DNA of 64,000 nt from Candidatus Omnitrophota bacterium (GCA_013203315.1 JABMQJ010000016.1:4956-68955); one strand, 5' to 3'; positions 17,360 to 20,563 are shown, counted from the stretch's first letter. Made by a program: numbers and translations. Notes: generated by a model from the sequence alone, not told the origin.

Positions 17360-17695
17360 ATGAAAAAGCTAAAGAAAAAAGGGTTTACGCTCGTCGAAAT
17401 CATGATCGTTGTTGCAATTATAGGTCTATTGGCGGCTATAGCCATTCCTAACTTTGTAAGGGCTAGGACAACGGCGCAAACCAATTCCTGCATAGCTAAC
17501 TTAAAGCAGCTCGAAGGGGCTGTCCAGGTCTGGGCTATAGAAACAGGTGCGGGTGATACCGATGCCTCGGTGCTATCCGATTTAACACCGTACGTCAGAC
17601 GTTGGCCCTCATGCGGAACAAGCGCATATGCGGCGCCAACCAGTGCATCTCAAACACCTACGTGTCCACTCGCCAACACTGACCACGTGCTCTAA
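17360..17695 (+). CDS. pilA: Type IV major pilin (PilA-like prepilin)
   Basis: Class III signal 'MKKLKKKG|FTLVEIMIVVAIIGLLAAIAIPNF' (G-1, E+5), ~111 aa, C-terminal Cys pair (C..C) for the D-region disulfide, Ser/Thr-rich tail 'AAPTSASQTPT'. Confidence 0.8.
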   Translation: MKKLKKKGFTLVEIMIVVAIIGLLAAIAIPNFVRARTTAQTNSCIANLKQLEGAVQVWAIETGAGDTDASVLSDLTPYVRRWPSCGTSAYAAPTSASQTPTCPLANTDHVL

Positions 17696-17728
17696 GGGCA
17701 AGAGCATTTTGAAGGCGTAAGCCTGAAT

Positions 17729-17761
17729 AGGGGGTGATGAATTCATCACCCCCTATTTTTA
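17729..17761 (+). terminator. Rho-independent terminator after the pilin gene
   Basis: Perfect 12-bp inverted repeat GGGGGTGATGAA/TTCATCACCCCC (17730-17753) followed by 'tattttta'. Confidence 0.6.
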
Positions 17762-17775
17762 TATCTTTAATATTT

Positions 17776-19785
17776 ATGAAGATCAGCATAATACTTTTTA
17801 TAATCATATCCCTGGGGGTATTGGCGTATAGCAATTCTTTGGGCAACAGCTTTGTATGGGATGACTCCGGCTTTATAATCAAAAACGATTTTATAAAAGA
17901 CCCCAAGCTAATTTCCTCATATTTTACTTCCAAAGAGGCCCTGGCAAAAGGAAGTCTTGCCGGTGAGAATTACAGGCCATTCCTGACGCTTTCGTACGCG
18001 ATAGATTACTTTTTCTGGCGGTTAAACCCGCTCGGCTACCACATCTCAAACCTTTTTTTTCATATACTATGCGCCATTTTGCTTTTTTTCATTGTGCTAA
18101 TTCTCACAAAAGACAGGATCGTAAGTCTATTTACGGCCCTTTTTTTTGTAACTCATCCGATACAGACCGAAGCAGTTACCTGGATATCCGGAAGGGCTGA
18201 TGTTCTCTTCTTATTTTTTTATTTGTCTTCACTGCTTTTATATATCAACTTTGTAACGCGCGGGCGACCGGGACTTTATTTTCTTTCGCTCATTGCTTTT
18301 GCATGTTCGCTTTTTTCAAAGGAAATGGCAGCGAGTTTACCCTTCATAATAATCTTGTACGATATTTTTTACGGAAAAAAAGAAAAAATCAGCGCGCGCG
18401 CGGTAAGGTATTTTAGTTTTTTTTTAATACTTGAGTCTTACATAATTCTGCGCCTTCATATTATAGGAAAACTTGCGCAGACCGGTTACTGGACAGGGGA
18501 TGTATACACGACCTTTCTTTCGATGGCTCGCGGCGTTGTATTTTATATAAAACTACTTTTGTATCCGGTTAACTTGTGCGCTGATTATCTGAAGTTTCCG
18601 CTCTCAGACTCTATTAAAGAGCCCGGGGTAATTTTTTCCATTGCGGTGATAGGCATGCTTTTAGGCGTGGCATTAAAGCTTTCCAGGAAGCATAAGCACA
18701 TTTCTTTTTCCATACTCTGGTTTTTTATAACCCTGGGCCCCGTTATAAACATTATCCCCATCAATATATTAATAGCGGAGCGTTTTCTGTATTTACCATC
18801 AATAGGATACTGCCTGCTAATCGCCGTGCTTATAGCAGGAGCCGCGGACAAGATGAAAAAAATAAAAGGCTTAATTTATTTGCCACTCGCTTTTGCTGTT
18901 TTTTTAGTCGGTGCATATTCGTATTTAACCATGATGCGAAACGAAGATTGGGCAGATGATGTAACGCTATGGGAGCAGACTGTCCAAGTATGTCCCAACA
19001 ACGAAAGGGCGCATCACAATTTAGCGGCATCTTATATCATAAAGGGAACCGATATCGAAGAGGCGCATAAACAAGCTCTGAAAGCCCTCGAAATTGAGCC
19101 GGGTTATTCCCGTTCGAGATTAGTGGTGGCAACATACCTTATCAACAAAAATAAACCGCCAGATGCCATTGCGGAAATTAAAAGGGCAATAAAGGATGAT
19201 CCGTATTTTGTGGAAGCGTATGCCTTTTTAGGTAATATTTATACGTTTCTGGGGGAGTACGAAAAAGCGTATAACGAATACAAAAAAGCGCTGATATTAA
19301 AGCCGGACTTTCTTGAAGCCAGTATAAATGTGGCAACACTTTATTTAATAAAAGGCGACATGGGTTCAGGCATTGAAGAGTTCAATAAAATCCTAAAAAG
19401 GCCCAGGGTTCGGCATCACAAATCGATTTATGCCGCGGTATACCTAAGACTGGGAGATGCCTATTTTACAGCAGGTGACGAAAAAAGCGCCATGCGGGCC
19501 TGGCGTAAGGTTCATGAGGACTTTGCTACCGAAATATGGTTTCACGAGATATCCAAATTTCTTATAGGGGAAATTACACTGGAGGGCTTACTCCGTGAAT
19601 CCGACAGTTGGCAACCGGAATTTAAGGCCATATGCTATTACTATGTCGGCTTAAAAAAAGAGATGCAGCGCGATTTTGAGGGCGCTAAAATCTATTACGA
19701 ACAATCCAAAAACCTTATCACGAAAACGTTTCAGCAAGTCCGGGTGCTTGCAGAGAGACGCTTACTAGCGCTGGAAGAAAAATAA
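17776..19785 (+). CDS. TMTC/PMT-like GT-C glycosyltransferase (DUF1736-type membrane domain) with C-terminal TPR repeats
   Basis: Polytopic N-terminal domain with 'AYSNSLGNSFVWDDSGFI' (DD motif) and 'THPIQTEAVTWISGRADVLF' characteristic of DUF1736/TMTC O-mannosyltransferase-like proteins; C-terminal ~250 aa of TPR repeats. Start moved to the ATG at 17776 because the ORF-track start 17734 lies inside the pilin terminator. Confidence 0.65.
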   Translation: MKISIILFIIISLGVLAYSNSLGNSFVWDDSGFIIKNDFIKDPKLISSYFTSKEALAKGSLAGENYRPFLTLSYAIDYFFWRLNPLGYHISNLFFHILCAILLFFIVLILTKDRIVSLFTALFFVTHPIQTEAVTWISGRADVLFLFFYLSSLLLYINFVTRGRPGLYFLSLIAFACSLFSKEMAASLPFIIILYDIFYGKKEKISARAVRYFSFFLILESYIILRLHIIGKLAQTGYWTGDVYTTFLSMARGVVFYIKLLLYPVNLCADYLKFPLSDSIKEPGVIFSIAVIGMLLGVALKLSRKHKHISFSILWFFITLGPVINIIPINILIAERFLYLPSIGYCLLIAVLIAGAADKMKKIKGLIYLPLAFAVFLVGAYSYLTMMRNEDWADDVTLWEQTVQVCPNNERAHHNLAASYIIKGTDIEEAHKQALKALEIEPGYSRSRLVVATYLINKNKPPDAIAEIKRAIKDDPYFVEAYAFLGNIYTFLGEYEKAYNEYKKALILKPDFLEASINVATLYLIKGDMGSGIEEFNKILKRPRVRHHKSIYAAVYLRLGDAYFTAGDEKSAMRAWRKVHEDFATEIWFHEISKFLIGEITLEGLLRESDSWQPEFKAICYYYVGLKKEMQRDFEGAKIYYEQSKNLITKTFQQVRVLAERRLLALEEK

Positions 19786-19798
19786 AGCGGAGGCAATT

Positions 19799-20563
19799 AT
19801 GCTTGAAGGCAAGAAAATTATTGTGGTCATGCCGGCTTACAACGCGGAAAAAACGCTTAAAAAAACCTATGATGAAATTCCAAAAGAAATCGTAGATGAG
19901 ATCCTTGTAATAGACGACTATTCTACCGACAGAACAGTTGAGGTCGCCAGGGGGATGGGGCTCGAAGTTTATGAGCACGAGAAAAATAAGGGGTATGGAG
20001 CGAACCAAAAAACATGTTACAGCCAGGCCCTTAAGAAGGGCGCCGATATCGTAATAATGCTTCATCCCGATTATCAATATCCGCCTAAGCTTATAACTGC
20101 AATGGCAGGCCTCGTGTCCTCAGGTATTTTTGACGTGGTTTTGGGCTCCAGGATTCTGGGGGGTATGGCCATTAAAGGGGGCATGCCTCGATATAAGTAT
20201 TTTTTCAACAGAATGCTTACCTTAGCCGAGAATGTTTTAATAGGCCAGAAACTTTCGGAGTATCACACCGGTTTCAGGGCATTTTCCAAAGAAGCGCTGA
20301 AAAAAATTCCTCTTTTAGAGAATTCCGACGATTTTTTATTTGATAACCAGATGCTTGTTCAGGCGATTTTCTTTGGTTTTAAGATCGGTGAGATAACGGC
20401 GCCCTCTAAATACACTAAAGAATCATCATCGATAGGGTTTAGGAGAAGTTTAGTCTATGGTGTTGGCGTAATCACTACGGCCATGAAATTTGCCATTCAA
20501 AAACTGAAAATAGCCCGGTTTCCTATGTTCGATGAAGAGGGGGCGAAGCTTGACAAACCATAA
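19799..20563 (+). CDS. GT2 polyprenyl-phosphate sugar synthase (Dpm1/ArnC-like)
   Basis: GT-A fold N-terminus 'IVVMPAYNAEKTLKKTYDEIP...DEILVIDDYSTDRT', DXD-like 'HPDYQ', ~250 aa typical of dolichol/undecaprenol-phosphate mannose or glucose synthases. Confidence 0.8.
   Translation: MLEGKKIIVVMPAYNAEKTLKKTYDEIPKEIVDEILVIDDYSTDRTVEVARGMGLEVYEHEKNKGYGANQKTCYSQALKKGADIVIMLHPDYQYPPKLITAMAGLVSSGIFDVVLGSRILGGMAIKGGMPRYKYFFNRMLTLAENVLIGQKLSEYHTGFRAFSKEALKKIPLLENSDDFLFDNQMLVQAIFFGFKIGEITAPSKYTKESSSIGFRRSLVYGVGVITTAMKFAIQKLKIARFPMFDEEGAKLDKP

Follow-up and report, generated by a model that had tools for sequence, protein, structure and literature searches.

Gene arrangement at the locus

The stretch of DNA analysed here (64,000 nucleotides from a Candidatus Omnitrophota bacterium, GCA_013203315.1 JABMQJ010000016.1:4956-68955, hereafter the window) carries a type IV pilus locus. 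Within it, three open reading frames (ORFs) follow one another on the + strand between pilC and pilMNOPQ: a pilin gene, a gene for a membrane protein that joins a GT-C glycosyltransferase domain to tetratricopeptide repeats (TPR), and a gene for a family 2 glycosyltransferase (GT2). An initial annotation, made from the sequence alone, had proposed these coordinates, this strand and this gene order, and all were confirmed by ORF calls. The GT-C and GT2 genes are indeed inserted into the pil gene order, with pilT, two pilB-like genes and pilC upstream and pilMNOPQ downstream. We consider it reasonably probable that the three genes form a pilin-modification cassette within a type IVa pilus operon. 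The features on which this reading is built are as follows.

17291-17319, + strand: sigma-70-type pilin promoter (TTGACT, 17-nt spacer, TATAAT, extended -10 TG)
17360-17695, + strand: major type IV pilin gene, recognised by its N_methyl motif
17725-17768, + strand: intrinsic terminator between the pilin and GT-C genes (hairpin 17725-17758; 15-bp stem, 4-nt loop, T-rich tail)
17776-18951, + strand: GT-C domain of the TMTC-like protein, aa 1-392, 11 transmembrane (TM) helices
18958-19785, + strand: C-terminal TPR domain, aa 395-668, 16 helices, about eight repeats (Pfam TPR families, PDB TPR matches, full-length model)
19799-20563, + strand: Dpm1/AglJ/PpgS-like GT2, 254 aa (PF00535 at 85.7 bits)

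The mechanical ORF of the GT-C gene spans 17734-19785. Because the GTG at 17734 falls within the terminator hairpin, that codon was rejected and the ATG at 17776 taken as the true start. The resulting product of 669 aa matches a deposited 'tetratricopeptide repeat protein' (P0001) with 100% identity.

The membrane protein and the TMTC family

Judged by its sequence, the GT-C of the window truly belongs to the TMTC family, broadly defined. Twenty-five bacterial homologues were compared by hhalign with human TMTC1-4 and zebrafish TMTC3, whose N-terminal sequences were taken from the alignment supplement of Eisenhaber et al. 2021 (PMC7801869). The two sets matched with a probability of 100% and an E of 6e-52 over 378 columns. 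Moreover, the window protein alone is 26% identical to human TMTC3 over 383 aa (BLASTP, E 1e-26). These values bear out the TMTC-type GT-C with a C-terminal TPR array that had been proposed for this gene. At 50% identity, 132,684 representatives match the family profile (E up to 0.001), a very large number that includes eukaryotic TMTCs. Full-length prokaryotic TMTC homologues have been noted before and described as uncharacterised (Eisenhaber et al. 2021, PMC7801869), and the literature searched contained no prokaryotic TMTC homologue with an assigned acceptor and no solved TMTC-type structure.

The motifs published for TMTCs are DD (M1), S-H-K-S-Y-R-P (M2), RxD (M3), KE (M4) and ERxxY (M7), together with a DW in EL4 (Eisenhaber et al. 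2021, PMC7801869). Seven residues of the window protein that correspond to M1, M2, M3, M4 and M7 are invariant in 55/55 homologues, namely D29, D30, R67, P68, R140, E183 and Y339. Other motif residues are less fixed, being shared by 31 (D142), 50 (K182), 53 (E335) and 46 (R336) of the 55. A HP(I/V)(Q/H)TE..GR.D block is also conserved in the bacterial homologues (H127...R140 in the window protein). Two peptides had been quoted in the initial annotation as hallmarks of DUF1736/TMTC. Both are present, NSFVWDDSGFI at aa 24-34, which carries the DD motif, and HPIQTEAVTWISGRAD at aa 127-142, which is the HP.(H/Q)TE..GRAD block, but they lie outside the DUF1736 segment (aa 245-294). In that segment the Pfam TMTC_DUF1736 model (PF08409) scored 17.4 bits (E 0.004), below its cut-off of 27, and weak PF08409 matches were found in 13 of 25 family members (best E 1e-5). 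We propose D29-D30, Y66-R67-P68, R140, K182-E183 and E335-R336-Y339 as putative catalytic or donor-binding residues.

Two motifs depart from the animal pattern. Of M2, only Y66-R67-P68 is retained; the S-H-K-S of TMTCs reads A-G-E-N here and is variable in the family. The DW is D270-Y271 in the window protein, with D in 27 of 55 homologues. The H-K-S residues of M2 have been proposed to contact mannose (Eisenhaber et al. 2021, PMC7801869). These mannose-contacting residues are missing here, and therefore the sugar cannot be presumed to be mannose, nor the O-mannosylation that the likeness to animal cadherin enzymes had called to mind. Both departures bear more on sugar identity than on homology.

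AlphaFold2 models of the TM domain and of the full-length protein had a mean predicted local distance difference test score (pLDDT) of 91 and 94.3 respectively, with a predicted template modelling score (pTM) of 0.92 for both. The full-length model consists of 11 long hydrophobic TM helices followed by the 16 TPR-type helices. All fold matches of the GT-C model were GT-C enzymes, ArnT, Pmt2 and Pmt4 among them. Searches of the TM domain against PDB sequences by phmmer and profile hmmsearch gave zero matches, ArnT and PMT included, and at sequence level there is thus no sign of the unrelated GT-C family, such as ArnT, that had been raised as a competing assignment. The Pfam matches of the GT-C domain were marginal, with PMT_2 at 24.4 bits (cut-off 26.1) and PMT at 22.7 bits (cut-off 22.7). 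No Wzy_C/O-antigen-ligase-type domain was found in the pilin, the GT-C or the GT2 with Pfam or NCBIfam. The GT-C is very probably an active lipid-linked-sugar transferase.

The TPR region matches PDB TPR structures, including the TPR domain of OGT. Foldseek comparison of the full-length model with the PDB returned TPR proteins only and no solved GT-C+TPR structure. With 11 TM helices and a cytoplasmic N-terminus, the latter assumed from the topology of TMTCs and of the pilin arabinosyltransferase TfpW (see below), the TPR domain would be periplasmic, and we propose it as a putative acceptor-binding module. The description of PDB entry 8ebf names Leptospira interrogans LIC11990, a 'cytoplasmic membrane protein' of 667 aa, of which the entry covers the C-terminal TPR domain. 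The size and layout of LIC11990 suggest that 8ebf is a fragment of a bacterial TMTC-like protein; a literature search on it was uninformative.

The GT2 partner

The protein encoded next is probably a polyprenyl-phosphate-sugar synthase, a putative assignment that follows from its nearest relatives. The top PDB match of its Glycos_transf_2 domain was the Dol-P-Man (dolichyl-phosphate-mannose) synthase of Pyrococcus furiosus (5mlz, E 5e-10), with ArnC lower in the list. A Dpm1/ArnC-type GT2 had been predicted beside the GT-C, and the Pyrococcus enzyme is its closest solved relative. The four best NCBIfam matches are all polyprenyl-phosphate-sugar synthases (AglJ, Dol-P-hexose transferase, PpgS and PgfS). 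All of them fall below their cut-offs, the best at 72.5 bits against a cut-off of 325 for AglJ. With scores so far below the curated cut-offs, the sugar of this GT2 cannot be named. The protein has no TM segment (no hydrophobic 19-mer above 1.8).

In 18 of 162 loci, a relative of the GT2 is the immediate same-strand neighbour of a GT-C/TPR gene, frequently at a distance of 3-60 nt, and most of these loci lack a pilin. This recurrent adjacency supports a module of donor synthase plus transferase, and it is likely that the adjacent GT2 supplies the donor of the GT-C.

The pilin

The pilin gene encodes a short type IVa-style prepilin of 111 aa (mature form 103 aa) with the cleavage motif KKKG|FTLVEIM (Pfam N_methyl, 35.9 bits) and an N-terminus that resembles the PilA/GspG models of NCBIfam. 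Its C-terminal end is SCGTSAYAAPTSASQTPTCPLANTDHVL. A Ser/Thr-rich tail had been taken as a hint of O-glycosylation. The tail is indeed rich in these residues in the window, where the last 27 positions hold 8 Ser/Thr (18% in the mature protein as a whole), and the richest stretch is the loop between C85 and C102, with 7/16 Ser/Thr. This property is not kept in orthologues. Loop content ranges from 2/16 to 7/16, and the tail was rejected as a conserved acceptor region. With such variation between orthologues, tail composition is weak evidence.

Across five orthologous pilins C44, C85, C102, T76 and S97 are invariant. S97 is the only invariant residue within the C85-C102 loop, and T76 precedes the loop; we regard the two as candidate glycosylation sites. 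In the pilin modified by TfpW, the main sites lie in the alpha-beta loop and not in the tail (published TfpW descriptions).

Transcription signals

The pilin promoter fits the consensus at 11 of 12 positions, and counterparts lie upstream of the pilin gene in three related loci (L001, L003 and L009). Between the pilin and GT-C genes, the terminator hairpin has a folding energy of -32.5 kcal/mol (z -5.7), a stability that not one of 200 shuffled sequences reached. A hairpin with a U-tract is found at the equivalent position in the same three loci and in an unrelated pilin-linked locus (L079); these hairpins are not related to one another in sequence. In the window the ATG at 17776 follows the hairpin after only 17 nt, too short a gap for a promoter. 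The GT-C and GT2 genes are therefore most simply expressed by read-through from the pilin promoter. We propose that the terminator is a putative attenuator, keeping read-through expression of GT-C and GT2 low.

The same layout of pilin, Rho-independent terminator and accessory gene has been described in Pseudomonas aeruginosa, where pilA is combined with tfpO, tfpW or tfpX/Y/Z and accessory-protein stoichiometry is governed by the terminator.

At 20550-20577, in the 3' end of the GT2 gene and 10 nt before pilM, there is a further promoter-like site (TTGACA, 16-nt spacer, TAGTAT and a TG). pilMNOPQ may therefore be transcribed from a promoter of their own.

Linkage to pilin genes in other genomes

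Loci with related GT-C genes were collected by exact-protein look-up, a scan of GTDB species genomes and a metagenome scan, and were annotated with phmmer and the prepilin motif. They include the following groups.

Clade A (window, L088, L171, L001, L003, L009, L172): 54-70% mutual identity; pilC-pilin-GT-C order in 7/7
Nearest paralogues (L005, L006, L007, L008, L011): 53% or less identity to the window protein; pilin linkage 0
Clade B (L143, L150, L155, L157, L159): 46-61% mutual identity, about 30-35% to the window protein; pilin directly upstream in 5/5
Isolated cases (L045, L113, L079, L168): distant; pilin upstream

Two of the clade A loci (L088 and L171) stop at a contig edge behind the GT-C gene. 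The order from pilT to pilC upstream is identical to that of the window in L001, L003, L171 and L172. Three clade B loci have the order pilC-pilin-GT-C, and none has a GT2 beside the GT-C. In L168 the order is pilS-pilin-pilin-GT-C-GT2.

A same-strand prepilin gene lies directly upstream of 12 of 224 GT-C ORFs, and of 4 of 320 other long ORFs from the same loci (Fisher p 0.008). The test is conservative because the comparison ORFs were drawn from the same pilus-rich loci. Pilin linkage is therefore clade-specific, recurrent and tight, and is not family-wide.

The gene that follows the GT-C is less constant. In clade A it is a Dpm1-like GT2 in the window, L001 and L172. GT-C and GT2 as a fixed pair was rejected, the GT2 being replaced in L003 and L009 and absent in clade B. 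The GT2 of L168 was likewise rejected as a case of the same pair, being of a different GT2 type. The initial annotation had suggested a survey of related genomes for the same insertion: the pilin-GT-C order stands in all of clade A and recurs in distant clades, but the GT2 is not a constant part of it. The ORF in place of the GT2 in L003 (10037-11500, minus strand) encodes 487 aa and has no significant Pfam match.

TMTC-like GT-C/TPR genes also lie in tandem, with 3-7 paralogues per array, in Omnitrophota, Thermodesulfobacteriota and other metagenome-assembled genomes (L035, L073, L041, L038, L026). In three deltaproteobacterial loci (L168-L170), GT2, radical-SAM and methyltransferase genes are interspersed among the GT-C/TPR genes.

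Comparison with known glycosylation systems

The closest parallel is TfpW (AAM52060.1), the group IV pilin arabinosyltransferase of P. aeruginosa Pa5196/PA7. TfpW is a 646-aa GT-C with 11 predicted TM helices plus a sizeable C-terminal TPR domain in the periplasm. A DDx motif in its periplasmic loop 1 is essential, and loop 4 holds a Y-x6-P-F-x7-P motif. It is encoded directly downstream of pilA and O-glycosylates Ser/Thr residues of the pilin with D-arabinofuranose from a polyprenyl-phosphate donor, and homologues are found beside pilA in other Proteobacteria (Azotobacter, Acinetobacter venetianus, Teredinibacter, P. indica and Kingella denitrificans). The claim that pilin modification by enzymes of this kind had not been characterised is overstated, for it overlooked TfpW, a GT-C with TPR encoded after pilA that O-glycosylates pilin.

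Compared by published description of features and not by sequence, the window protein is like TfpW in size (669 vs 646 aa), in its 11 TM helices, in its TPR domain and in having D29-D30-S31 in the first loop. The position of the gene is alike as well, with the pilin stop at 17695, then the terminator, then the ATG at 17776. The loop-4 motif is matched in part: Y257-x6-P264 is present in 55/55 homologues and is followed in the window protein by V and, after 10 residues, by P275 (31/55), giving P-V-x10-P where TfpW has P-F-x7-P.

The host phylum differs, Omnitrophota in contrast to Proteobacteria, and so does the donor route. TfpW uses polyprenyl-P-D-arabinofuranose made from phosphoribosyl pyrophosphate (PRPP) via DPPR synthase (PsPA7_6246) and DprE1/DprE2, whose genes lie elsewhere or next to tfpW, whereas a Dpm1-like GT2 adjoins the GT-C of the window. 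Among the window's ORFs of 150 aa or more scanned with Pfam there was no DPPR synthase, DprE1, DprE2 or phosphoribosyltransferase. When the proteobacterial pilin-linked GT-C of L079 was used to look for homologues, no entry named TfpW came up, and the sole match of a tblastn search of plasmids for TfpW-type sequence was a Haladaptatus hypothetical protein. No paper mentioning TfpW and TMTC together was found in the literature searched.

Animal TMTC1-4 (CAZy GT105), the O-mannosyltransferases of cadherins and protocadherins, are homologous to the window protein over the whole domain and share with it the plan of an 11-TM GT-C with a non-cytoplasmic TPR array. The motifs DD, YRP, HP(I/V)(H/Q)TE..GRAD, KE and ERxxY are common to both, as is partnership with a Dpm1-type donor synthase. 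They differ in site, which is the endoplasmic reticulum for the animal enzymes and the bacterial inner membrane and periplasm for the window protein, and in acceptor, a cadherin EC (extracellular cadherin) domain as opposed to, presumably, the pilin.

In actinobacteria, a PMT of the Rv1002c type (GT39) acts with Ppm1: the GT2 makes polyprenyl-P-mannose and the GT-C O-glycosylates exported proteins on Ser/Thr. The two-step logic is the same, and the window protein gives weak Pfam matches to PMT and PMT_2. The actinobacterial enzyme differs in having a MIR domain where the window protein has TPR, and the window gene, unlike it, is linked to a specific putative acceptor gene.

PglL/TfpO (PilO) of Neisseria, Pseudomonas group I and Acinetobacter also modify type IV pilins in the periplasm, and tfpO lies directly after pilA. 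These enzymes are of a different family, transferring preassembled undecaprenyl-diphosphate-linked oligosaccharides en bloc, and the window protein gave no Wzy_C match with Pfam. Lastly, GtrA/GtrB/GtrC and ArnC/ArnT likewise combine a GT2 polyprenyl-phosphate sugar synthase with an extracytoplasmic GT-C, but their acceptors are O-antigen or lipid A and a small flippase is usually co-encoded, which was not found in the window.

A model for pilin modification and its alternatives

In the model we favour, the pilin would be transcribed from its own strong promoter and most transcripts would stop at the terminator, leaving GT-C and GT2 expressed at a lower level by read-through. On the cytoplasmic face of the inner membrane, the GT2 would transfer a sugar from a nucleotide sugar to polyprenyl (undecaprenyl) phosphate, and the lipid-linked sugar would then be flipped by a flippase encoded outside the window. 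The GT-C, with D29-D30 of the first periplasmic loop as its catalytic residues, would move the sugar to Ser/Thr in the pilin's globular domain, which faces the periplasm. This transfer may happen while the N-terminal helix of the pilin still anchors it in the inner membrane, with the approximately eight periplasmic TPR repeats recognising the acceptor. PilBCMNOPQ would then assemble the glycosylated pilins. That the adjacent pilin is the acceptor of the GT-C appears fairly probable. Pilin glycosylation itself we infer, as we do the donor lipid, the sugar, the flipping step, the acceptor role of the pilin and the sites.

Several observations weigh against this model. Most members of the very large family, including the nearest paralogues, are not beside pilins, and family membership alone therefore does not give the acceptor. 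The synteny of clade A could be inherited rather than selected. A terminator behind the pilin gene is also expected if the pilin is simply a separate transcription unit. In the close orthologue L088, the C85-C102 loop of the pilin contains only 2/16 Ser/Thr. In L003 an unrelated minus-strand ORF takes the place of the GT2, and in L009 a second GT-C does so. Beyond the pilus locus, the 64-kb window holds housekeeping genes and no further glycosyltransferase, flippase or nucleotide-sugar gene.

According to a second explanation, the GT-C and GT2 are an active periplasmic module with some other acceptor (minor pilins, PilQ, envelope proteins, a glycan or a lipid) that landed in the pilus operon and was inherited there. 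It would account for the lack of pilin linkage in most of the family and among the nearest paralogues, for the many family members that sit in tandem arrays (7 copies in L035, 5 in L073 and 4 in L041), and for GT2 and GT-C pairs with no nearby pilin (L005, L011, L059 and others). It also agrees with an enrichment of pilin neighbours that is modest (p 0.008) and with a Ser/Thr-rich tail that is not conserved. However, the position behind the pilin terminator is kept in 7/7 clade A loci although the next gene changes, and the distant clade B is pilin-linked in 5/5. Moreover, independent pilin-GT-C junctions occur in a proteobacterial lineage with pilS upstream, and TfpW provides a precedent for a pilin acceptor. 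We therefore regard another acceptor as possible but rather unlikely, and modification of the adjacent pilin as the better account.

The protein might instead serve as a TPR-based pilus assembly factor, akin to a PilF/PilW/Tgl-like pilotin or a TfpY-like chaperone, with its glycosyltransferase activity irrelevant or lost. The locus has no separate TPR pilotin gene, the TPR region gives weak matches to PilW (46.7 bits) and Tgl (44.9 bits), and several homologues are labelled 'PilF' by JGI. The matches amount to generic TPR similarity, as the cut-offs are 154 and 225 bits, and we took the JGI 'PilF/TadD' labels as generic TPR annotation. The catalytic GT-C motifs, in contrast, are all invariant, the protein is predicted to be an 11-TM inner-membrane enzyme and not an outer-membrane lipoprotein, and a donor-synthase gene comes next, all of which makes an assembly role highly improbable. 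Equally improbable is an ArnT-like or PMT-like (GT83/GT39) modifier of lipid or glycan in place of a TMTC-type protein glycosyltransferase, since the marginal PMT_2 and PMT scores and the presence of ArnT, Pmt2 and Pmt4 among the fold matches stand against the lack of any sequence or profile match to solved ArnT or PMT, the TMTC1-4 match across the domain (E 6e-52), and a TPR domain of TMTC/TfpW type with no PMT MIR domain.

Implications of a pilin-linked TMTC-type enzyme

If the preferred model of pilin glycosylation is correct, what is new is not the arrangement of pilin, terminator and GT-C, which is already known from TfpW. We infer instead a TfpW-style, pilin-linked GT-C/TPR glycosylation in Omnitrophota, with a donor gene of the Dpm1 type, which would add Omnitrophota and other uncultured lineages to the few Proteobacteria with this kind of pilin modification. 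A pilin, a GT-C and a likely donor synthase make a simple three-gene system with a small, easily expressed putative acceptor. Such a system could reveal which sugar is donated, what governs acceptor choice and what the TPR domain does across the whole family, the disease-linked human TMTCs among them. Glycosylation of its pilin guards P. aeruginosa against phages specific for pili, and such protection would matter for the ultra-small, surface-attached Omnitrophota. Should the pilin prove to be unmodified, the genes would be merely another GT-C/GT2 pair lacking characterisation.

A broader and rather doubtful extension is that the bacterial TMTC family holds several clades independently dedicated to pilins, namely clade A of the Omnitrophota, clade B and a deltaproteobacterial pilS-pilA clade, with TfpW as one more. 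The cadherin O-mannosyltransferases of animals would then belong to an ancient family, some of whose bacterial members glycosylate adhesive surface filaments with donors that differ by clade.

Other features of the pilus locus and the window

The remaining genes of the pilus locus are listed below.

11004-12089, + strand: pilT (ORF call and Pfam)
12093-12566, + strand: stand-alone MshEN-domain gene, 157 aa
12575-14314, + strand: first pilB-like ATPase gene
14318-16042, + strand: second pilB-like ATPase gene
16047-17264, + strand: pilC
20588-24905, + strand: pilM, pilN, pilO, pilP-like and pilQ
24913-26427, + strand: RNase G gene, between pilQ and the minor-pilin genes
26448-30191: a 140-aa prepilin, a very large prepilin-like protein of 719 aa and a 386-aa PilX_N protein, all after RNase G

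The stand-alone MshEN protein and the N-domain of each of the tandem PilB-like ATPases place three putative cyclic di-GMP-binding modules consecutively. This arrangement is kept in L001 and L003, where a GGDEF protein is encoded just upstream. The placement of the RNase G gene after pilQ is kept in L001, L003 and L172.

All credible genes of the window are on the + strand, and the GC skew is positive in each 2-kb bin. The minus-strand ORFs were read as non-coding because each overlaps a longer + strand ORF with a Pfam match. Outside the pilus locus, the window contains two EPSP_synthase-family (MurA/AroA-type) genes (4377-5657 and 57476-58747) and a gene that fuses a bactofilin domain with an HTH_17 DNA-binding domain (48525-49061).

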